A stretch of DNA of 64,000 bases from assembly GCA_002239085.1 (NCBI GenBank), contig MPNP01000001.1:49169-113168 (forward strand), written 5' to 3'. Source of the stretch: Rhodobacteraceae bacterium bin131 (GTDB lineage Bacteria > Pseudomonadota > Alphaproteobacteria > Rhodobacterales > Rhodobacteraceae). Under the pieces are notes generated by a model. That model was not told the origin of the DNA. It worked only from the letters and a program-made list of their open reading frames with translations, and did not search any database. The stretch's first letter is position 1; every line of letters starts with the position of its first letter. Below, one piece after another: positions 22,145 to 39,784 of the stretch. The position numbers and the translations under genes were made by a program.

Positions 22145-23935
22145 TTATTTTTTGACTTCTCCTAGTGACGCAACTTTTTCGGCGATGATTTTAGCTCTTT
22201 CGTTCAGAAACTTATCGTAAAGCACTTTTAATTCTCCTTTGCTATTCATTGTTTCGAAAGGCACAAGATGCTCTTCGATTCTTTTTTGAAGAATAGTAGT
22301 TTTAATGAGGAATTTTTTTTCAGAGTTTTGGATAAATATTTCAGGTAATAGATTTGACATTCCTTTATTCGTTCTTCCATTAAGAAAAACACCATTTAGG
22401 CCACTGTTGATAGCATCTATATCTATATTAGCTTCTTCTAATAGTTTTTTTGGGAATACATGATGAGTATCAAGGTTTCTGTTAGCTTCAAGATCTCTGA
22501 ACATGTTTTCGTTTATTGGGTCACCTGTTATCCAATCACTTGGATTATTTGACATTACTAAAGAAGCTACAGCCCTTCCTAATCTAGTTTTTTTACCAAT
22601 CCAAGGAGTATGTTTAAGTAAACTTTTGTGACTACAAAGCGGGTAATCGGTTTCATTTAAAGCAGGTATATTCTTACTACACCATGTGCCATCAATCTTT
22701 ATCATCTGAAATTCACGCTTTAGAGCCACAAAATCAAAAAAAAGCCTATCGTTAGCTTGTGCGTCATACCTATCAGAAAATATACATCGCCAATAATATG
22801 TACTAAGTAACTCTCTTGCTGAATTGATTTTTGAGGGGTTAGTAATTTCGTTGTAAATTTCATACAAGGCAGCAATCACGTGTAAAGGTGGCCAACTAGG
22901 TAAGATCCTATCTGTGAAGGCACCAAATGCGGAAGCTTTTTCCAAACTCCATGAAAGATGCATTAATAGTTTTTTGATTGTGTTGCTCTTATTCATTTCC
23001 TGTTGATACAACAAATCAAGTGCTTTTTTGTAATTTACTTCTTTTGGAGCTAAATCTGACTTCAGACAAGCGACTTTAAGCATCCATTCGCCGATATCGG
23101 GTATCCAATCTTCTGGATCATTTTTGAAATAATAACCAAAATTTTTACCTTCCTTACCGCATTCTTCATTGATTGAAGTACGTAAATTTTCACTATGCTG
23201 AGATTCAACTCGAGCGACCTCAATATCAAAGCGTTTGATTTTCACAGAGGAGGTATTTGTTTCAACAAAAATGTCAGTAGCCGTTGGACGGTCAGTAGAT
23301 GAAGGAAGAAAACATGCCCAGAGTTGTCTTTTGAAAAAATTCTCTTTAAAAAACGCATCTATTTTAATCTCAAGTAACCTGGCCTCTTGAGAATTTGATT
23401 TGAAAATCTCTTGACACCAATTGGTTAGAGGTGAAAATGCTTTGTCATCATGAACTTTCAGTAGAATGTCAAGTGGAACTAGGTTGGCATCGTAAGAATT
23501 TGATACATCACGATATTCTTTTTCTTTACGGGTTTCTTTTCCGTAGGCCTCAAGAAGAGAAAATTCTAACTCACTAGAAGATAAATCTTCAAATTTTACA
23601 AAAAGTCTGCTTTTTGCCTTTCCATGAATACATTGCAACAACGATGTCATTCGTTGTTGACCATCTAGAATAAATTCCGAAAAATCTCCTGTAGAATTTC
23701 TAAAGTCAAGATTGTAAAAATCCCGTGGTTCAAACTGTTTGTCCCTATCCTTTTCTAGGATTAGAAAGAAACCAACTGGCTTATCATTAATTATAGCTTG
23801 GATATAATTCTTGACTTTATCCATGGTCCAAACGAAACTTCTCTGAAAATCAGGTAGGATAACAGACCCGTCTTGGGAGAGCTTAAGCCAGTCTTCTAAA
23901 ACTCTGAAGTCATATTTTATTGATGAGCTCTTCAT
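22145..23935 (-). CDS. DUF262 (ParB-like NTPase) plus DUF1524 (His-Me finger nuclease) protein, GmrSD/SspE-type
   Basis: 596 aa. N-terminal DUF262 hallmarks LPDFQRSFVW and ILDGQQRMTSL. C-terminal DUF1524-like nuclease motif DTHHVFPKK...NGVFLNGRTNKGMSN. Divergent from the adjacent operon. Confidence 0.8.
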   Translation of the reverse strand: MKSSSIKYDFRVLEDWLKLSQDGSVILPDFQRSFVWTMDKVKNYIQAIINDKPVGFFLILEKDRDKQFEPRDFYNLDFRNSTGDFSEFILDGQQRMTSLLQCIHGKAKSRLFVKFEDLSSSELEFSLLEAYGKETRKEKEYRDVSNSYDANLVPLDILLKVHDDKAFSPLTNWCQEIFKSNSQEARLLEIKIDAFFKENFFKRQLWACFLPSSTDRPTATDIFVETNTSSVKIKRFDIEVARVESQHSENLRTSINEECGKEGKNFGYYFKNDPEDWIPDIGEWMLKVACLKSDLAPKEVNYKKALDLLYQQEMNKSNTIKKLLMHLSWSLEKASAFGAFTDRILPSWPPLHVIAALYEIYNEITNPSKINSARELLSTYYWRCIFSDRYDAQANDRLFFDFVALKREFQMIKIDGTWCSKNIPALNETDYPLCSHKSLLKHTPWIGKKTRLGRAVASLVMSNNPSDWITGDPINENMFRDLEANRNLDTHHVFPKKLLEEANIDIDAINSGLNGVFLNGRTNKGMSNLLPEIFIQNSEKKFLIKTTILQKRIEEHLVPFETMNSKGELKVLYDKFLNERAKIIAEKVASLGEVKK

Positions 23936-24036
23936 ATAATTTTTCTAAATTAATTTTTGAATTTTAATATGTTTTATTTACCTAATAGAATATATTGGTG
24001 AGTAATGTTCGGAGAATATGAAGAATTTTTCATTTT

Positions 24037-24045
24037 TGTTATAAT
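24037..24045 (+). promoter_or_regulatory. Extended -10 promoter element TGTTATAAT upstream of the island operon
   Basis: Exact TGnTATAAT read in the divergent intergenic region, about 120 nt upstream of the first possible start. No clear -35. In AT-rich DNA a chance match is possible. Confidence 0.3.
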
Positions 24046-24167
24046 TTGACCCTTGATTAGACTTGCCATAGGGAAGAGTACCCGATTGGATTTGTAGAAT
24101 TTGCTGACGAATTAGTACAATAGCATTTTTGTCTTGAGGAGTTTGCTCTGAGGGTCAATAAGACTGG

Positions 24168-25754
24168 TTGTCAAAACTCATTCAACCTTACATAGACAAG
24201 AAGGTGGAGAGAGCTACAAAGAACCTCTCAAACAGAACAATTGAAAAAGTTCAATCTCCAGTCAAAAAAACACTAATACTAATTTTAAACTGCACTTCAC
24301 AACCTAAAAAATTTACCAAAATTTGTCTTTCGATTATGAATATAACAACCACTAAGTGCTGTAAGCAAGACCATAAATTGAGTGAAACTTGTTGGTCAAA
24401 TGCTAATGCACCCCAAATTGCTGGTGTTCCGAAATTAGTAAATTCAAAGAAATATATTAGAAAGAAACCACTTCATGAGCCCCAAATTGAGTATGGTTTA
24501 AACTATAAAGATAAACATCATCCTGACCTACCACATATCGTGAAATTCTCTGGCGGAAGATCTAGTGGGATGTTACTACTAACCCTTCTGTGCAATCAAA
24601 TTTTAGATGCAAAAAGGGGCGATGTAGTTATATTTAACAATACTTCATGTGAACATCCATATACCTATGACTTTGTTAAGCGTTGTAAAAAGGTAACTGA
24701 GAACTTTGGGATTCCTTTTTTTATAGTTGAATTCATTACTTACGAAGACTCAAGGCGAGGTGAATGGGCGCGATTTCCTTCTTATCGGCTTACAAATGAA
24801 AATCCGATAAGTTCCGATAACCCCAACGGTTTTCATTGGAAAGGAGAAGTTTTTGAGGAGCTTATATCTTGGTCTGGATTTATTCCAAATCAATTCAGTC
24901 GAATTTGTACAAAAAGAATGAAGCTTGAGACTACAAGATATTTTCTCCAAGATTGGTTTACCAGTGAAGATGCAGTTCAGCAAGTCGGTCATTTTGATGC
25001 ACAGTCAAGAATAGATCACCGGGTCACTTATTTACGTCATTTACGCAATGGTGGTAGTGTCCCAGAGGAAATATTTTTTAAGAAAAAAAGGTTTGTATGG
25101 AGTAGGCCTCATTTTAGGCAAGAACAAAAATACCTTGATTTCTCAAGTGCTTGGATACCATTCGTACTACCAAAAAAGTCAATTCCAAGCAATCGCTCTC
25201 AATTGGTTTCCAAAGGTTTTGAATATGTTTCTTTTATTGGCCTAAGAGGTGATGAAAAAGTAAGAGTCAATCGGGTAAAAGAAAGAAATTCAAATCTAGA
25301 TGCATACGGCTTTGAAGGAGAACACATTTATCTCCCACTTGATAATATGAATATTTCCAAAGAGGATGTGAATGTTTTTTGGAGTAACCAAGAATGGGAT
25401 CTTAATTTACCCATGGGAGGTGGGCTTTCAAACTGTGTTTACTGTTTTTTAAAGGGTGCCAAAAATCTTCGTGGTATTCACGCCGAGATGGAAAGAATGA
25501 AACATAGAGGTGATATTCCCAATTACGGCTCAATTGAAAACACTCCATGTGACCTTGAATGGTGGAAACGGATTGAAAGGGATTATGGAAGAGATTTGTT
25601 AGCTGAAAATAGAAAGAAATCAAATAATGAAATTAATTTTCTTGGTTTCTTTGGGAATAAAACTGGATTTAATTATGAGCTGCTATCAAGTGCCAACGAT
25701 AAAGTAATGAATAAGTATATAGGCGAACTTTTACCGTGTGATTGCACAGAATAG
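24168..25754 (+). CDS. PAPS-reductase-like PP-loop ATP pyrophosphatase (DndC/SspD-like)
   Basis: 528-aa ORF. PP-loop IVKFSGGRSSGMLLL, later Cys motifs SNCVYCFLKG, and C-terminal LLPCDCTE. The N-terminal ~115 aa is Lys/Cys-rich with no recognisable domain. The start is uncertain (TTG 24168 or ATG 24336). Confidence 0.75.
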   Translation: MSKLIQPYIDKKVERATKNLSNRTIEKVQSPVKKTLILILNCTSQPKKFTKICLSIMNITTTKCCKQDHKLSETCWSNANAPQIAGVPKLVNSKKYIRKKPLHEPQIEYGLNYKDKHHPDLPHIVKFSGGRSSGMLLLTLLCNQILDAKRGDVVIFNNTSCEHPYTYDFVKRCKKVTENFGIPFFIVEFITYEDSRRGEWARFPSYRLTNENPISSDNPNGFHWKGEVFEELISWSGFIPNQFSRICTKRMKLETTRYFLQDWFTSEDAVQQVGHFDAQSRIDHRVTYLRHLRNGGSVPEEIFFKKKRFVWSRPHFRQEQKYLDFSSAWIPFVLPKKSIPSNRSQLVSKGFEYVSFIGLRGDEKVRVNRVKERNSNLDAYGFEGEHIYLPLDNMNISKEDVNVFWSNQEWDLNLPMGGGLSNCVYCFLKGAKNLRGIHAEMERMKHRGDIPNYGSIENTPCDLEWWKRIERDYGRDLLAENRKKSNNEINFLGFFGNKTGFNYELLSSANDKVMNKYIGELLPCDCTE

Positions 25755-25756
25755 AA

Positions 25757-26893
25757 ATGTCCGAATTACCAGTTTACCTTGATTACCAATCGACTACTCC
25801 GATTGACCCACGTGTGGCAGAAGTGATTTCAGAGTCCTATGAGAAGTTTTTTGGGAACCCTCATGGTCGACAACATTACTATAGTCGGATTGCGGCTGAG
25901 GCCATTGAAGATGCACGAGAAAAAATTGCATATCTTATTGGTGCATTCCCTAATCGTATTGTATTTACTTCAGGAGCGACCGAGTCATGCAACCTTGCTT
26001 TACGTGGGATTGTACAAAACTCTAATGGAAAGCGAAAGAGAATCATTTCAGTTGCAACTGAACATTCAGCCGTGTTAGAAAACTTGAATGCGATAGAAAG
26101 ATTGGAGTTTGAAGTTAAGTTTGTGAAAGTCGATAGAGATGGGATAATAGACCTAGAACATTTAAATAATTTAATAAATGAAAACACCCTAATCGTATCA
26201 GTTATGGCTGTGAATAATGAGATAGGAGTTGTTCAACCAATTAATAAAATCGCTGATATGTGCCATAGTAAAGGTGCTTTATTTCATACTGATGCAACTC
26301 AAGCCCCTGGTCGTATAATTATTGATGTTGAGGTATGGAATGCTGACCTATTAACAATATCTGCTCATAAACTTTATGGCCCTAAAGGTATCGGAATACT
26401 TTATGTTTCTGAAGACTCGCTATTGGCACCTATTTTTTATGGTGGTGGCCAAGAAAGGGGACTGAGGTCTGGTACATTGCCAACGCCATTAATTTGTGGT
26501 TTTGGGGAGGCAGCAGCGATAGTATCAGAGGAGGGTAGAAAAGACGCAAAACGAATGAACGAATTGAGTAAAAAGCTTTGGATTGGTTTAGAATCTTTGG
26601 CACCGGATATTGTTAAATTTGGATCATTAACACATAGGGCACCTGGAAGTCTTAATTTCGGATTTCCTGGAATTCCAGGTGACCGGCTTGTTGCAATGGT
26701 TGAAAATGAAATTGCTATCTCAACTGGCTCATCCTGTGCATCTGAAAGTAATTCTATTTCACACGTTTTGAGTGCATTAGGATTGCCTAGATCATCAATA
26801 TCAACTGCCATTAGAGTAAGCTTAGGAAGGTTCACAACTGAATCCGAAATCAATAAGGCACTATTAGCTTTCAAAACAATTTTAGCGAAGTAA
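25757..26893 (+). CDS. Class V aminotransferase-fold cysteine desulfurase (IscS/NifS/DndA/SspA-like)
   Basis: PLP lysine context SAHKLYGPKGIG, catalytic Cys loop STGSSCAS, N-terminal LDYQSTTPIDPRV. ATG 25757 is 3 nt after the preceding stop; the ORF is open from 25742. Confidence 0.85.
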   Translation: MSELPVYLDYQSTTPIDPRVAEVISESYEKFFGNPHGRQHYYSRIAAEAIEDAREKIAYLIGAFPNRIVFTSGATESCNLALRGIVQNSNGKRKRIISVATEHSAVLENLNAIERLEFEVKFVKVDRDGIIDLEHLNNLINENTLIVSVMAVNNEIGVVQPINKIADMCHSKGALFHTDATQAPGRIIIDVEVWNADLLTISAHKLYGPKGIGILYVSEDSLLAPIFYGGGQERGLRSGTLPTPLICGFGEAAAIVSEEGRKDAKRMNELSKKLWIGLESLAPDIVKFGSLTHRAPGSLNFGFPGIPGDRLVAMVENEIAISTGSSCASESNSISHVLSALGLPRSSISTAIRVSLGRFTTESEINKALLAFKTILAK

Positions 26894-26899
26894 TATTAC

Positions 26900-28855
26900 A
26901 TGCCCGACCCCAACCTAATTTTTTATGATACCCAAACAGAAACAGGATTTACCTCAGCAGGGGTTTCTGCTTTTTCTGAACTAAATCCTGCGGCTGTAGT
27001 CAGAGAACTGATACAAAATTCACTTGATGCCGCTTTGATTGAAGCCAAAGAAAATTGTGCAAAGGTGCAATTCAGACTATTTGAATCTCAAACTAAAGAC
27101 ATTCCCGGAATTAAAAGCTATAAAGCTGCGTTTAAGTCAGCTAAACATCATCAAATGGTTGATGGAAGACTGCCAATTGCTGCTGGTCCTATTGCCGAAC
27201 GGGTTGAAAATGCTCTGCGGAAAAAGAATCAAAGAATACTTGCGGTCTCTGACAACGGTTGTGGATTGGACAAAGCAAAAATGCTTGCCCTTTTAGGTGA
27301 TGGTATCAGTGCAAAAAGTGCTAATTCGGCTGGGACATATGGGAATGGCCACTCTGTTCCAATCCCGGCTTCTGACCTGAGATATTTATTATATGGAGGA
27401 TTAACTGAGAATGGAAAAACTATTGCTTCAGGAAAAGCTTTGCTAGCTACACATATAAAAAATAATAAATTACTTTCTGACCGGGGCTTATTTGTAGTTG
27501 ATGGAGTAATTGATACTCAATTGAGAGGTCTGAGTTATTCGTTTCCAAGTGAGGACTTAATTCCTGAACTGATTAGAAATGAAATTGATTTAATAAAAAA
27601 TACATTCGGTCATGGAACCGTAATTTTGGTACCATCCTTTAACCAATTTGGGGAAGATAATGAATCTTTGTGGAAAATAGTGTCAAAAGCCACGGTATGC
27701 AGTTTTTTTGAAGCTATTCATTCAGAAAAACTCATTATTGAAGTCAAGGATGATATTATCGGTAGTTCTAATTGCTTAAATAAACAAAACCTCAAGGAGA
27801 TACTTGAAGAATATAAGAATGAAAAAAGATCCACCGGAGCTTATATTAGTGGGTCAAAAGCAAATTTGGCGTATGAGACATTAGTTGAAAGCAAAATAAA
27901 TAAATTAGAAACTACATTGGGTAATGTGGATATCCTTTTAAATGACAAAAAAGTTGAAAGAACTAGTATAGGACTATGTCGAAATGGAATGTGGATAACT
28001 GACGTTATTCCCACTTTTAGGGGGAAATTTAGTGATTTATATCCTTTTCGAGCATTATTACTATTACATTCAGAAGAAAGAAATTCTCTCTATAAAATAA
28101 TTCAAGAAATTGAAACTCCACTTCACAATAAACTTGAATTAAAATTGATTTCAAATGATGAAAAAAAGAAAAAGCTTAAAAATGCATTAGATGAAATTTC
28201 TGACTGGTTTCGAAATAATGTTACCAAGTTGGATTCAAATTCTTACAGTCCTGATAGTGTTTTATGCTTAAGGTTTGTTGATGGTACACACTCTGGTGGG
28301 GGAATCGACAATGATTTTATGGGTCCACCTAGTGTTGTTGAACCTTTTAGTCCGGGTTCGGGTACTGATGAAGCTGAAGGATCTAGTGAAAAAGGTGAAC
28401 AGCCGAGCGGCGGTAAAGGAAATGGACAAGGAGATAGGAGTCAGAAAAAAAGACGCAAAATCAAAAACCCAAATAATTTTCGTATCGTAGCAAGGTCAAA
28501 TGGTTCTGAAAAACTAAAAATTTTACTTGATTGCAATGAGGATTGCGAAAACGCTGAGCTAAGTGTTTTTATTGATGAGAACATTGATGAAACGTGTGAT
28601 AATTTTAGCAATAATGAACTTGTTAAACTGTTTGATGCTACAATTGATAGCAAAAAAATATCCCAAAAGAAGCTCGACAAAACTTCTAGAATTAAACTAG
28701 GAAAATTGAAGGCAAATACTCAAACAGTAATTGAAACTAAATTTCGTTTGCCAAATTTTGTACTTTGTAAAACCCTGAATTTTACTCCATCATTTAAAAT
28801 TGAAATTGAACAAATCGTTGAAGAACAAACTTCTGAAGGTAAAGCCAAGCGATAA
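26900..28855 (+). CDS. GHKL/Bergerat-fold (HSP90/MORC-like) ATPase with a long uncharacterised C-terminal region
   Basis: 651 aa. N-box VRELIQNSLDAA, G1 box VSDNGCGLD, G2-like AGTYGNGHS. Has a Gly/Ser/Glu-rich linker and a basic patch (GGKGNGQGDRSQKKRRKIKNPNN), then a Cys/acidic C-terminal domain. Confidence 0.7.
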   Translation: MPDPNLIFYDTQTETGFTSAGVSAFSELNPAAVVRELIQNSLDAALIEAKENCAKVQFRLFESQTKDIPGIKSYKAAFKSAKHHQMVDGRLPIAAGPIAERVENALRKKNQRILAVSDNGCGLDKAKMLALLGDGISAKSANSAGTYGNGHSVPIPASDLRYLLYGGLTENGKTIASGKALLATHIKNNKLLSDRGLFVVDGVIDTQLRGLSYSFPSEDLIPELIRNEIDLIKNTFGHGTVILVPSFNQFGEDNESLWKIVSKATVCSFFEAIHSEKLIIEVKDDIIGSSNCLNKQNLKEILEEYKNEKRSTGAYISGSKANLAYETLVESKINKLETTLGNVDILLNDKKVERTSIGLCRNGMWITDVIPTFRGKFSDLYPFRALLLLHSEERNSLYKIIQEIETPLHNKLELKLISNDEKKKKLKNALDEISDWFRNNVTKLDSNSYSPDSVLCLRFVDGTHSGGGIDNDFMGPPSVVEPFSPGSGTDEAEGSSEKGEQPSGGKGNGQGDRSQKKRRKIKNPNNFRIVARSNGSEKLKILLDCNEDCENAELSVFIDENIDETCDNFSNNELVKLFDATIDSKKISQKKLDKTSRIKLGKLKANTQTVIETKFRLPNFVLCKTLNFTPSFKIEIEQIVEEQTSEGKAKR

Positions 28856-28857
28856 AT

Positions 28858-29703
28858 ATGACCGATGAAATCTTTACAGTCAATAATGAGGCAAATTCAA
28901 ATACTTCATCAGTAAGAATGACTGATATCCCTGTACTAGAAGTCGGCAATCAATCATACCCTAGGGGAATTTATACAATCAAATTTAAGGAAAGAGCCGA
29001 TAATTCATCGTTTGAAATTACTCATTGTATTGAAAATGCTCCTCTAATCAATCATCTGACTGAACTCGGCTGTACTAAATTTCTTTGTACAGTTTCTTCT
29101 CCAATTTCATCCTACAGAAGAAGCCATATCTCATTAGAAGCAACTCAGATAATAAGTTGGAATAATGATGACCTCGGAGAAGCTCCTTTACTGAAACCAA
29201 TGATTGTTGTTTCAAAGCATTATAATAAAGTTCTAGATTATGAAAAGGACGGCGTACATAAATTCTGGCATGGTGAAGAAGTAAAATTTATTCCGGGAAT
29301 GAGACTGGCTATGAGTCAAGTTATCAAGTTGGGGTCAGCAATTCAGAAACTACTAATTTACATTGAAGATAAAGAACTTGGTCCAGGTGAATTTAAGGTT
29401 AATGAAGATACTAATGAAAATTTTTATTTTCTAGTTAAACTTGCTCCTGACCTTCATCAATTCTTAAAAATTAATCAGCTAAGCCCTCTCCAAAATAGTA
29501 TCAATACTCACATTGTAAGTTCATGTTTTAGTTATTTAAAACGTCACTATGCAAATGAAGAATACAAAAATTATAGAAATTTGATTGGTTTATTTAAGGA
29601 ACTTGAATCAAAGGGATTGCTTACTTGGACTGATGATGAATTTTTACCTGAATTGGCCGCTACCAAGCTTTATCCTCACATTGTAAATGAGACTGATAAA
29701 TGA
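28858..29703 (+). CDS. Hypothetical protein (island operon gene 4)
   Basis: 281-aa ORF starting 3 nt after the GHKL ATPase stop and overlapping the next gene by ATGA. No motif recognisable by eye. Confidence 0.6.
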   Translation: MTDEIFTVNNEANSNTSSVRMTDIPVLEVGNQSYPRGIYTIKFKERADNSSFEITHCIENAPLINHLTELGCTKFLCTVSSPISSYRRSHISLEATQIISWNNDDLGEAPLLKPMIVVSKHYNKVLDYEKDGVHKFWHGEEVKFIPGMRLAMSQVIKLGSAIQKLLIYIEDKELGPGEFKVNEDTNENFYFLVKLAPDLHQFLKINQLSPLQNSINTHIVSSCFSYLKRHYANEEYKNYRNLIGLFKELESKGLLTWTDDEFLPELAATKLYPHIVNETDK

Positions 29704-30578
29704 GCTCGATTTCTTTTATTGAGTTTGATGCAGATAAATTTTCAAATTTGCAAAGAAATCTTTTAAAACCCAAAAATAAAGGTTCAGAACAGCAGTGTAA
29801 ATTTTTAGAAAGGGTCATAGATTCATCTAATTTTTGTACAGAATTAGAGAAGATGTTGCCACAAGGAATCGAAGAAAATAAACTACCGGATTTAGTTACG
29901 AAAATGACTGAAGCTGAATTCAAAGATCCCCCGTGGGATACAGAAAAAAGAATTTACTCAATTTGGAAGAATATTCCTCCTAGAATTGCATGTAGGACTA
30001 CTTTTTGGGCTTATATTACTTATCAGCAAATTAAAAGTGATAGAATCAAATCATCATATTTGGTAGGGGGCAGGGGTAGTACCGGCAAGAATTGTATTCA
30101 TGAAGCATTAAACTCAAATGATAGGAAAGAGATAGATAAGTGTATTAGAGAAGTATTTCGCAGGCTTGGAGGACTTAAGCTTGCCCGTGGTAACAGGAGT
30201 ATCTATGTTGATTGTATTCTTGCTCGAGCATGGTGGAGAGAGAGGTTGGTTGAAGAAGTAGCAAAGGGGGATTGTGAATTAGAAGTTTATGTCCGTGATG
30301 CTGTTCGTATCAGTCAAAGCTATTGGGAAAAATTAGTGACATTTATTGTTTCACGAAACTCAGTGTTTGGTTCAACTGAAATTAGAAGTAAGTTTATTAA
30401 AATTCTTGGAGAGGAGTTGGCAACTGACCCAAATTCTCCCATGCAAAAAATTGAAAACTTAGTATTAGCCTCAAAAACTTTGAGTTCTGTTCAAGCGTCA
30501 CTTGAGCTCAGTATTTTAGACCCAAAAGAGATTGAAGAGAAAATGTTGGATATTATTAATTCAATATCAAACCAATAA
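29700..30578 (+). CDS. Hypothetical protein (island operon gene 5)
   Basis: 292-aa ORF, translationally coupled (ATGA overlap). Appears largely helical with Trp/Arg-rich segments (ARAWWRERLVEEV, SQSYWEKLVTFIVSRNSVFG). The size is compatible with the roughly 290-aa DUF4007 (SspB) class, but this is not verifiable here. Confidence 0.6.
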   Translation: MSSISFIEFDADKFSNLQRNLLKPKNKGSEQQCKFLERVIDSSNFCTELEKMLPQGIEENKLPDLVTKMTEAEFKDPPWDTEKRIYSIWKNIPPRIACRTTFWAYITYQQIKSDRIKSSYLVGGRGSTGKNCIHEALNSNDRKEIDKCIREVFRRLGGLKLARGNRSIYVDCILARAWWRERLVEEVAKGDCELEVYVRDAVRISQSYWEKLVTFIVSRNSVFGSTEIRSKFIKILGEELATDPNSPMQKIENLVLASKTLSSVQASLELSILDPKEIEEKMLDIINSISNQ

Positions 30579-30603: not shown

Positions 30604-31809
30604 CTACTGTAGATAGGATTGGTTGAGACTGATGAATTTTACCATGTCACCAGCCTTCCTAGGTCTATCGTTTGGTTCCCTTATCATTAACGCATTTGAT
30701 CTGTAGAGTACATTCAATAAAGAACTGTCTTGATGTTCATGAGCTTTGATGTTTGGTCTTTCAGTTGAATAATCAACGATAGCGCGTAGATAGTGTTCGC
30801 GTGGTCCATTGGCGTTTAATGGAGCGGACAGTTGGGCAATTTTTCTGGGTAAACCAATTGGATTTAATCGCTGCATAGCCTGAATTACGGGAAGAATAAA
30901 GACATAACCACAAACGATAGCTGAAACGGGATTACCAGGCAAACCAACTAATAGACTGCGAGGATTGCGACCAGCAAATAGTGGTTTGCCCGGACGCATT
31001 GCAATTTTATAAAATGAAATTTCAAAGCCCATTTTGTGTGCCGTATCTTGAACGAGATCAAAGTCACCAACCGAAGCTCCTCCAATTGTAAGAATAAGGT
31101 CGGAACTCTGTGCCATATTAAGAATGTTGGATATCGAGGATTCATTATCGCGGGCTATGGGGAGAAGTTTCACTTCACATCCAGCAACTTCAAGGATTGA
31201 CTTCAAGCCATATACATTTGAAGCAACAATCTGATTATCAGCTGGAATCTGTCCGGGCATAACCAACTCATCCCCAGTAGGAATAATTGAAACAATCGGT
31301 TTTTTGTAAACTAATAGTCGAGCTTGGTTCATCGCGGCCAGAAGCGAAATCAATGCGGGCGTAAGAACATGAGGCGCTGAAACTTTATACCCTTTCTTAA
31401 AATCGCTTCCGGCAAGTCGGATAAATAAATTTTCTTCTAAATGCTCATTGAGAATGATGATAGACCCGCAATCGTTCACATCTTCCACAATGACAACCCG
31501 GTCGGCTCCTTTGGGTATTGGAGCACCTGTATAAATTCGAACGGCCTCATTTCGACCCAAACAATAATCAGGAATGTCTGCTCCAGCAGGAACGGTACCA
31601 ATAATTTTTAATTGTTTTCCAGCTTCTGAATCATTTTGGCTAACAGCAAATCCGTCCATTGAAGAACTATCAAATGGTGGTTGGTCACGAGGTGATAACG
31701 TATCTTGAGCAAGTACTCGACCTGCCGCTTCGCTCAGATCAATCCACTCAGTTTCAAGGGGTGAGGTGATGGCTAAAAGCCGCTTCAATGCCTCACTGAC
31801 CGATATCAT
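30604..31809 (-). CDS. moeA: Molybdopterin molybdotransferase
   Basis: 401 aa. MoeA-like (SPRDQPPFDSSSMDGFAV; GGASVGDFD; GLPGNPVSA). Confidence 0.9.
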   Translation of the reverse strand: MISVSEALKRLLAITSPLETEWIDLSEAAGRVLAQDTLSPRDQPPFDSSSMDGFAVSQNDSEAGKQLKIIGTVPAGADIPDYCLGRNEAVRIYTGAPIPKGADRVVIVEDVNDCGSIIILNEHLEENLFIRLAGSDFKKGYKVSAPHVLTPALISLLAAMNQARLLVYKKPIVSIIPTGDELVMPGQIPADNQIVASNVYGLKSILEVAGCEVKLLPIARDNESSISNILNMAQSSDLILTIGGASVGDFDLVQDTAHKMGFEISFYKIAMRPGKPLFAGRNPRSLLVGLPGNPVSAIVCGYVFILPVIQAMQRLNPIGLPRKIAQLSAPLNANGPREHYLRAIVDYSTERPNIKAHEHQDSSLLNVLYRSNALMIREPNDRPRKAGDMVKFISLNQSYLQ

Positions 31810-39696: not shown

Positions 39697-39784
39697 TGGC
39701 GGAGAGACAGGGATTCGAACCCTGGGTACCCTGAGGTACAACGGTTTTCGAGACCGCCCCGTTCGACCACTCCGGCACCTCTCC
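39697..39784 (-). tRNA. tRNA-Ser (anticodon CGA), CCA encoded
   Basis: Reverse complement reads GGAGAGGTGCCGGAGTGGTCGAACGGGGCGGTCTCGAAAACCGTTGTACCTCAGGGTACCCAGGGTTCGAATCCCTGTCTCTCCGCCA. It has a 7-bp acceptor stem, anticodon loop CTCGAAA, a long variable arm (GTACC-TCA-GGGTAC) and a T-arm CAGGG-TTCGAAT-CCCTG. Confidence 0.9.

Follow-up and report, generated by a model that had tools for sequence, protein, structure and literature searches.

We analysed a window of 64,000 nucleotides of DNA from Rhodobacteraceae bacterium bin131 (GenBank assembly GCA_002239085.1, contig MPNP01000001.1, positions 49,169 to 113,168 of the forward strand); positions below are counted from its first letter. Between gltX and moeA, at 22145-30578, lies an island of six genes with a low G+C content, 33–37% within the island vs 41–43% in the flanks. 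We are concerned here with its last two genes, p281 and p292, and with the putative DNA sulfur-modification system to which they belong. The genes of the island, and the one that follows it, are listed here.

22145..23935, minus strand: GmrSD/DUF262-family protein, divergent, 596 amino acids (aa); GmrSD_N E 1.8e-19
24336..25754, plus strand: PP-loop/PAPS-reductase-like ATP pyrophosphatase, putative sulfur-inserting enzyme
25757..26893, plus strand: cysteine desulfurase (DndA/SspA/IscS-like), putative sulfur donor; Aminotran_5 E 2e-78
26900..28855, plus strand: GHKL (Bergerat-fold) ATPase, subunit A, 651 aa; PADLOC PDC-M33A E 1.5e-49
28858..29703, plus strand: p281, subunit B, 281 aa, ATG start; PDC-M33B family
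29700..30578, plus strand: p292, subunit C, 292 aa, ATG start; DUF6339/PDC-M33C family
30604-31809, convergent: moeA-like gene, downstream of p292

On the sequence matches of these proteins or of their families, the last three genes of the island are the unit listed in PADLOC as the candidate PDC-M33, in which A is the GHKL ATPase, B the p281 family, and C the p292 family. We refer to GHKL-B-C as the triad, and to the triad together with the PP-loop and desulfurase genes as the module. The first-pass annotation of this DNA, made from the letters alone, had taken p281 and p292 to be coding and to complete an operon. Both points hold, as homologues were found for each protein at these coordinates, and the two genes end the operon because the moeA-like gene downstream is convergent. 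The ATGA overlap described between them is also present at 29700-29703, where the p281 stop TGA (29701-29703) overlaps the p292 ATG (29700-29702). However, the gap of 3 nt given for the upstream junction measures 2 nt ("AT"), between the TAA stop of the GHKL gene at 28853-28855 and the p281 start at 28858, a trivial error.

p281 has 13 close homologues at 42–49% identity (E 1e-62 to 1e-77), and a profile search gathered 358 representative clusters. For the window copy itself, scans of Pfam, NCBIfam, and PADLOC found no match, in Pfam and PADLOC not even at E ≤ 1, and a Pfam scan of 90 diverse members of the family found no family common to them. In PADLOC, 87 of these 90 members match PDC-M33B, with a best E of 2.3e-16, and the p281-family profile finds the B proteins of triads on Lactococcus and Deinococcus plasmids at E 8e-14 and 2e-5. 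By transitive homology, p281 is assigned as a divergent member of PDC-M33B. The AlphaFold2 model of p281 has a predicted local distance difference test score (pLDDT) of 57.8 overall, with residues 40-150 at 73–92; the beta-rich N-terminal domain, at about residues 35-158, is confidently modelled, and the C-terminal helical part is poor. Foldseek comparison of this model with the PDB gave only weak FN3-like noise. The B family is acidic, with a median isoelectric point (pI) of 5.2. Across 87 sequences from all architectures, P25, Y39, H56, R87, W137, W257, and F262 are 90–100% conserved, with no nuclease-like set and no universally conserved Cys among the conserved residues.

p292 has 144 homologues. 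It matches Pfam DUF6339 (PF19866) at 25.4 bits over residues 166-282, above the gathering cut-off of 23.2 bits, as do 29 of 39 members of its family, and it matches PADLOC PDC-M33C at E 9.6e-5. Its AlphaFold2 model has a pLDDT of 91.7 and a predicted template modelling score of 0.89, and is all-alpha, with 16 helices. No structural neighbour of the model was found by Foldseek in the PDB (best E 2.3) or BFVD (best E 2.0), and a scan of IMG/VR for relatives of C returned none. The central region, residues 91-200, is basic, with a pI of 9.4. In 88 sequences, F45, W103, G129, R150, R154, R163, and W179 are 97–100% conserved, and E71 and G164 are 93–94% conserved; the motif RGNRSVYVDCPLARAWWRERL is also kept in the closer clade of C.

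The Pfam, NCBIfam, and PADLOC scans agree with the earlier impression that neither protein has a recognisable nuclease, methylase, ATPase, or helix-turn-helix (HTH) motif, and neither protein matched a well-characterised unrelated family. The conserved residues of both families include no nuclease-like set of the metal-dependent type, rich in acidic residues and His. Sequence-profile searches of the PDB with the B, C, PP-loop, and GHKL families were empty. Of the two, p292, helical and rich in Arg and Trp as noted earlier, is the better candidate for contact with DNA, and the basic centre, the invariant Arg and Trp residues, and the all-helical model provide support for this.

B and C are closely coupled. 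Among 70 distinct loci, the two genes overlap by 4 nt in 27, and their junction lies between −20 and +12 nt in 66. Furthermore, fused B-C proteins of 584–634 aa occur in at least 8 representative clusters, and because fusion is classical evidence for physical association, B and C are likely to form a complex. Three fused clusters are short forms of 439–471 aa, which contain only the N-domain of B together with a complete C. These forms point to a docking role for the helical C-terminal part of B, which fusion would make superfluous, and the N-terminal beta domain is probably the indispensable part of B. Some fused B-C genes stand apart from the module (L056:3810-5129, L057:2468-4222, L058:5100-6926, and L059:255-1670). 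Their neighbours are unrelated, including glycosyltransferases, a thiamine pyrophosphate enzyme, and an AAA_15 ATPase, with no GHKL or PP-loop gene on these mostly short contigs; they are possibly orphan or independently acting copies.

The order GHKL-B-C was contiguous in every locus examined. The match of the window GHKL protein to PDC-M33A covers profile positions 13-412 of 627, and Pfam gives weak HATPase_c and HATPase_c_3 matches, with no match to SspC. Motifs I–III are intact in the translation (E36xxxN40xxD43, D118xG120xG122, and G145xxG148xG150), followed by a low-complexity linker and then a variable C-terminal domain; the C-terminal third of this protein is the least conserved part of the operon. 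One locus, L060:8894-21694, contains an HNH endonuclease, a fused B-C protein (587 aa), one PP-loop gene, two complete GHKL-B-C triads, the second preceded by a 64-aa open reading frame (ORF), and a UDG-family gene, with no cysteine desulfurase. Such a surplus of triads and fused B-C over PP-loop genes fits the idea of exchangeable recognition units.

The genomic association of p281 and p292 with the sulfur enzymes was followed in both directions. A scan with the p292 family, with one genome per GTDB species, gave 49 loci, of which 45 had enough flanking sequence. In 42 of these 45, drawn from many phyla, the PP-loop enzyme, desulfurase, GHKL ATPase, B, and C are encoded in the same order as in the window. 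The remaining three (L043-L045) have only a p292-like gene or fragments of it, one with a DndB-like pair nearby and the rest of the module gone, and they are likely to be decayed systems. Searched in turn with the PP-loop family, JGI metagenome contigs yielded 65 loci. The complete triad was present in 43 of these, which are all the loci of sufficient length for it, and in all 8 of the loci with full flanks on both sides. The 43 loci have four architectures.

GHKL-B-C-PPloop: 20 metagenome loci
PPloop-CysDes-GHKL-B-C: 11 metagenome loci
PPloop-GHKL-B-C: 9 metagenome loci
GHKL-B-C-PPloop-CysDes: 3 metagenome loci

These counts, 42 of 45 in genomes and 43 in metagenomes, show B and C to be core components rather than passengers, as the first reading had proposed, and homologous operons do not routinely lack the two genes. 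The cysteine desulfurase is not in the locus in 29 of the 43 metagenome loci, and it is therefore dispensable there. In a second clade, the GmrSD gene has its place within the operon, after the desulfurase and before the GHKL ATPase (PPloop-CysDes-GmrSD-GHKL-B-C). Two distant PP-loop homologues (36–40% identity), in ORFs of 809 and 605 aa at L116:5897-8326 and L122:587-2404, have no triad on the contig; these long ORFs may represent another architecture or an N-terminal fusion.

Nearly all carriers of this module are metagenome-assembled genomes (species representatives, L003-L051) of lineages typical of sponge microbiomes, including Ca. Poriferihabitaceae, Binatia, Latescibacterota, Dehalococcoidia, Spirochaetia, Bryobacterales, Vicinamibacterales, and Pseudomonadales. 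They span at least 10 phyla at 33–54% protein identity. This suggests wide horizontal spread of the module within one habitat, and the sponge skew may be partly sampling bias.

The window PP-loop enzyme matches SspD (E 2.6e-8), BrxP (6e-7), and DndC (4e-3) in PADLOC, and has the PP-loop motif SGGRSS. All 21 of 21 members of its family match SspD, over a short stretch (best E 1.4e-10), and all 21 match BrxP at E 4e-7 or weaker; because these matches are weak, we regard the enzyme as a clade of its own. The invariant features of the family are the SGG(R)SS loop, the Cys in RxCT, and CxxC, together with a C-terminal LPCxCT(D/E) motif in which both Cys are invariant. The desulfurase matches SspA at E 9e-136 and DndA at 2e-133. 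The combination that marks a phosphorothioate (PT) system, a PAPS-reductase-like PP-loop enzyme with conserved Cys and a cysteine desulfurase, is thus present. These results bear out the initial description of a sulfur-modification operon of the Dnd/Ssp kind that also encodes two additional proteins without enzymatic appearance. Unlike the P-loop NTPases of established PT systems, the NTPase that is strictly linked to the PP-loop enzyme here is a GHKL protein.

The starts of both sulfur-enzyme genes differ from those in the ORF list. The listed PP-loop ORF begins at TTG 24168, and its first 56–80 residues or so are unconserved. It is over-extended, because conservation begins only past ATG 24336, which gives a 472-aa product in agreement with homologue lengths and leaves a divergent intergenic region of about 400 bp between this gene and the GmrSD gene. 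For the desulfurase, ATG 25757 is a more likely start than the listed TTG 25742, as gene calls in sister contigs give a length of 378 aa, corresponding to ATG 25757. A scan of the island for promoters and terminators gave results at chance level only and was set aside.

The genes around the module can be exchanged. The divergent GmrSD-like protein matches HEC-05 at E 7e-14, and SspE models only at E 0.006, and it has an HHVFP motif near its C-terminus, read from the translation. Orthologues at 30–42% identity directly adjoin the module in 11 distinct genome loci. This protein is probably a modification-sensing nuclease partner in an SspE-like role, in which it would act as the nuclease. Other loci have PbeA (E 4e-150) and PbeC (E 1e-46) in its place, with methyltransferase-like and sigma70-r4 HTH proteins, or a 170-aa protein paired with a DndB-like DGQHR protein (Pfam DndB E 3e-23). 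GmrSD/DUF262, PbeA/PbeC, and DndB are modules of the Ssp, Dnd-Pbe, and Dnd systems. Two small families of about 170–190 aa also recur beside the module, each in 9 genome loci, "fam10" (e.g. L004:4021-4545) and "fam11" (e.g. L018:2524-3087). The position of one is upstream of the PP-loop gene or following PbeC; the other accompanies the DndB-like gene, and no Pfam or PADLOC match was obtained for either. Elsewhere in the window, the sole RNA gene is a tRNA-Ser (CGA) at 39697-39784 on the minus strand, and there is no rRNA gene.

The triad also occurs by itself on plasmids. Distant relatives of the window GHKL protein (22–30% identity) are encoded on Lactococcus, Ligilactobacillus, Arthrobacter, and Deinococcus plasmids, in a unit of four genes: an ORF of 77–80 aa, the GHKL protein (about 620–655 aa), a protein of about 285 aa, and a protein named "DUF6339 family protein" in RefSeq. 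These units are located in defence islands, where their neighbours are Dcm/Vsr, type I M+S, AlwI, Sau3AI-like, or AbiG genes. In PADLOC, the canonical plasmid PDC-M33 scores E 6.9e-162 for A, 3.7e-63 for B, and 3.7e-47 for C. PDC systems are defence candidates that were proposed through "guilt-by-embedding" (bioRxiv 10.1101/2024.01.29.577857). The canonical copies, on plasmids of Lactococcus lactis, Ligilactobacillus salivarius, Priestia, and Planococcus, have the same three families in the order GHKL-B-C, with overlapping genes, as in the window, but the window triad is a distant clade. Among 20 plasmids with a B gene, none has a PP-loop gene of the window's clade, whereas the window triad is obligately joined to the PP-loop enzyme, and usually to the desulfurase and PT-linked nucleases. 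Profiles of the window families find the plasmid GHKL at E 5e-36 and the plasmid B at E 8e-14. A profile–profile comparison (hhalign) of the window C family with the plasmid C was not significant, with the alignment off-register; the link of the C family to the plasmids therefore rests on shared Pfam and PADLOC models, synteny, and the A..W and LARxWW motifs.

The ORF of 77–80 aa directly before the plasmid GHKL gene (L133:5657-5899, L134:5852-6082, L135:5874-6107, L130:6666-6896) has no PADLOC match and no counterpart in the window. In the Ligilactobacillus salivarius plasmid pMP1CEA3 (L132:8189-11661), a group II intron reverse transcriptase/maturase (ltrA) is located inside the B gene, with B fragments on both sides.

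The established PT systems are Dnd, Ssp, Tdp, and type 4 of the bacteriophage exclusion (BREX) systems, in which a PAPS-reductase-type enzyme is found with P-loop NTPases or alone (PMC12914056). DndC/SspD and DndA/SspA are recruited to a core of an ATPase plus a DNA partner, DndD-DndE (where DndE is small and obligate) in Dnd and SspC-SspB in Ssp (PMC10853773), and this NTPase-plus-DNA-partner function is essential in Dnd, Ssp, and BREX type 4 (PMC10853773; PMC12914056). The corresponding pair in BREX type 4, for which phosphorothioate production was shown in 2026, consists of BrxP, a fusion of SspD and SspB, and BrxC, a P-loop homologue of SspC (PMC12914056). In Tdp, by contrast, tdpC, which is of the PP-loop type, was reported to be enough alone for PT synthesis (PMC12914056).

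The module of the window is most like SspABCD-SspE, both in its parts (a desulfurase, a PP-loop enzyme with SspD as its best PADLOC match, an ATPase, small partner proteins, and a DUF262-family nuclease) and in its logic of sulfur donor, activating enzyme, ATPase plus DNA partner, and PT-sensing nuclease. However, the ATPase is a GHKL protein (PDC-M33A), without the ORC/Cdc6-type AAA+ ATPase SspC, and two unrelated proteins, B and C, stand in the place of DUF4007/SspB. The SspE models do not fit the GmrSD-like protein, and the PP-loop matches to SspD are at E 1e-8 to 1e-10. The operon is thus not an Ssp set. In Dnd, DndA is not needed in the locus, like the desulfurase of the window type, and homologues of PbeA/PbeC (of DndCDEA-PbeABCD) and DndB adjoin the module in other loci as they do Dnd modules. 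Unlike Dnd, the operon has no homologue of DndD or DndE; it has a GHKL protein instead of the SMC-like ABC fold, and two partners, neither of which is a ribbon-helix-helix protein. BREX type 4 also has a PAPS-reductase-domain enzyme and an NTPase as an essential pair, and the window PP-loop enzyme matches BrxP, but PglZ and BrxL are not in the window and its NTPase is not of the P-loop type. Topoisomerase VI, MutL, and MORC are Bergerat-fold ATPases that act on DNA with non-ATPase partners, a functional analogy only; no similarity in sequence or structure was found between B or C and Top6A, the MutL C-terminal domains, or the MORC accessory domains.

Several identities for B and C were considered and were either rejected or found no support. 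An SspB fold for p292 does not agree with its 16 helices, and the model has no PDB neighbour, the presence of an SspB entry in the searched PDB copy being unverified. DndE consists of two tandem ribbon-helix-helix units, is about 120 aa long, and is paired with DndD or a CxC ABC ATPase. There is no DndE match for p281 or p292, their sizes of 281 and 292 aa and their secondary structures are incompatible with it, and the operon has no ABC ATPase. For a metal-dependent nuclease, only H56, Y86, and R87 of B and E71 of C remain as conserved polar or acidic residues. Nicking by B through a Tyr residue (Y86-R87), in the manner of topoisomerase VI, found no support; there is no CAP or Toprim similarity, and Y86 is present in only about 85% of members. 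A specificity subunit would have a hypervariable target-recognition domain, and there is no such segment in B or C.

What is the function of the triad? We propose that GHKL-B-C is the DNA-scanning core of a PT-type modification system, in which a non-catalytic B-C heterodimer binds DNA through C, and B serves as an acidic adaptor. We give this proposal an even chance of being correct. It draws on the homology, the linkage, the fusions, the fold prediction for C, and the conservation patterns. The B-C heterodimer would dock on an ATP-driven GHKL dimer. C would supply the surface in contact with DNA, by its basic centre with W103, R150, R154, R163, and W179, and B would be the adaptor, probably non-catalytic. 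The cysteine desulfurase would make a persulfide, and the SspD/BrxP-like PP-loop enzyme would activate the DNA site and insert the sulfur, with phosphorothioate as the presumed product. GHKL-B-C would find or present the DNA sites, in a role like that of DndD-DndE, SspC-SspB, or BrxC in BREX type 4, and would be needed for modification. The divergent GmrSD-like protein would restrict DNA without the mark. No homologues of DndD, DndE, SspB, or SspC are found in the operon, and the triad is therefore the only candidate for the NTPase-plus-DNA-partner function.

Several observations weigh against a scanning core. No DNA-binding fold was recognised in the structure searches with B or C, the p281 model is poor outside residues 35-158, and neither protein has a hypervariable segment like a target-recognition domain. 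The sufficiency of tdpC for PT synthesis (PMC12914056) means that the PP-loop enzyme might not need the triad. The plasmids that carry the triads of Lactococcus, Ligilactobacillus, Priestia, Planococcus, Arthrobacter, and Deinococcus lack PP-loop and desulfurase genes, and the triad is therefore autonomous there, with a function independent of sulfur chemistry. Furthermore, no restriction gene other than the triad could be recognised in about half of the PT-coupled loci, so restriction would fall to the triad. These last points lead to a different proposal, that the PP-loop enzyme, with the desulfurase, marks self DNA alone, and that GHKL-B-C is an ATP-driven sensor and effector directed against unmarked DNA, which it would attack or block. 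B, C, or both would then be a new kind of effector, with the GmrSD or Pbe genes as extra layers. The location of the stand-alone triads in plasmid defence islands, beside restriction-modification and Abi genes, agrees with this, as does the proposal of PDC-M33 as a defence candidate through guilt-by-embedding, and restriction-type operons are the typical setting of prokaryotic GHKL/MORC proteins (PMC2292703). However, no residues typical of a nuclease or another known toxic enzyme are conserved in B or C. No PP-loop enzyme of the window's clade was seen apart from the triad; among true restriction-modification pairs, by contrast, modification enzymes are commonly orphaned. GmrSD and PbeA/PbeC already provide PT-dependent restriction around a constant module of 4–5 genes, as in Ssp-SspE and Dnd-Pbe, and in the plasmid systems such an effector, being homologous, would be required to recognise quite different marks or no mark at all. 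A role of the triad on the restriction side is the main rival, which we consider possible, though less likely than the scanning core.

Two other functions for B and C appear much less probable than this. The first-pass annotation had suggested that one of the two proteins, p292 by preference, is the SspB (DUF4007) equivalent, a nickase of an Ssp-type system, which would make p281 an accessory protein. The operon position and size do resemble sspB, C has near-invariant acidic residues in the close clade (E71, E82, D146, and E210), and H56, Y86, and R87 of B are kept in most members. However, DUF4007 (PF13182), SspB, and DndE were not found in p281, p292, or their families (90 p281-family members in Pfam and PADLOC; 39 p292-family members in Pfam). 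Neither protein has a fold match to SspB; the confident model of C has no PDB match, and its 16 helices differ from SspB, which is a triple winged-helix protein (PMC10853773). The only potential catalytic residues conserved across all architectures are E71 of C and H56 of B, so that residue conservation lends no support to a nickase role in either family, and the partner ATPase is a GHKL protein, not SspC. We therefore regard the nickase as very unlikely. B or C could also be a TusA/TusE-like sulfur relay from the desulfurase to the PP-loop enzyme, and C77 and C223 of B, and C98, C148, and C172 of C, are indeed conserved in close homologues. But the four architectures have no Cys in common (C172 of C occurs in 51 of 88 sequences; in B, C77 occurs in 62 of 87 and C223 in 38), and the relay is rejected for this reason; the canonical triads are without any sulfur enzymes, and the desulfurase gene is often not in the locus. 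A sulfur relay is largely refuted and hardly credible.

We return to the scanning core and to what it would add. The PDC-M33 triad is already catalogued as a defence candidate; what appears to be new is its PT-type setting with a different ATPase core. Our full-text literature searches found no paper on DUF6339, on PDC-M33, or on a GHKL ATPase in PT systems, and the combination of GHKL and PT is mentioned neither in the 2024 reappraisal of Dnd from the Aravind lab nor in the paper on MORC proteins (PMC2292703). The 2026 survey of PT systems required a P-loop NTPase nearby (PMC12914056), so a GHKL-based system would have been missed. Judged from its genes, the island is probably an undescribed fifth type of DNA PT modification-restriction system. 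A fuller claim, which we hold tentatively and at slightly less than an even chance, is that a portable ATP-driven scanning core of two new folds captured an SspD/BrxP-like enzyme, to give a fifth PT class (or a chemically different sulfur modification), the first with a non-P-loop NTPase, and that this spread horizontally through sponge-associated bacteria of at least 10 phyla.

If this is correct, a sulfur-inserting enzyme can plug into unrelated ATP-driven cores that handle DNA. The system is small, with 4–6 genes. It would also give a first functional handle on DUF6339, on the B family, which has no Pfam entry, and on PDC-M33 of the plasmids of dairy Lactococcus and gut Ligilactobacillus. 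The apparent concentration of the module in genomes of sponge symbionts may bear on phage defence and gene flow in dense communities.

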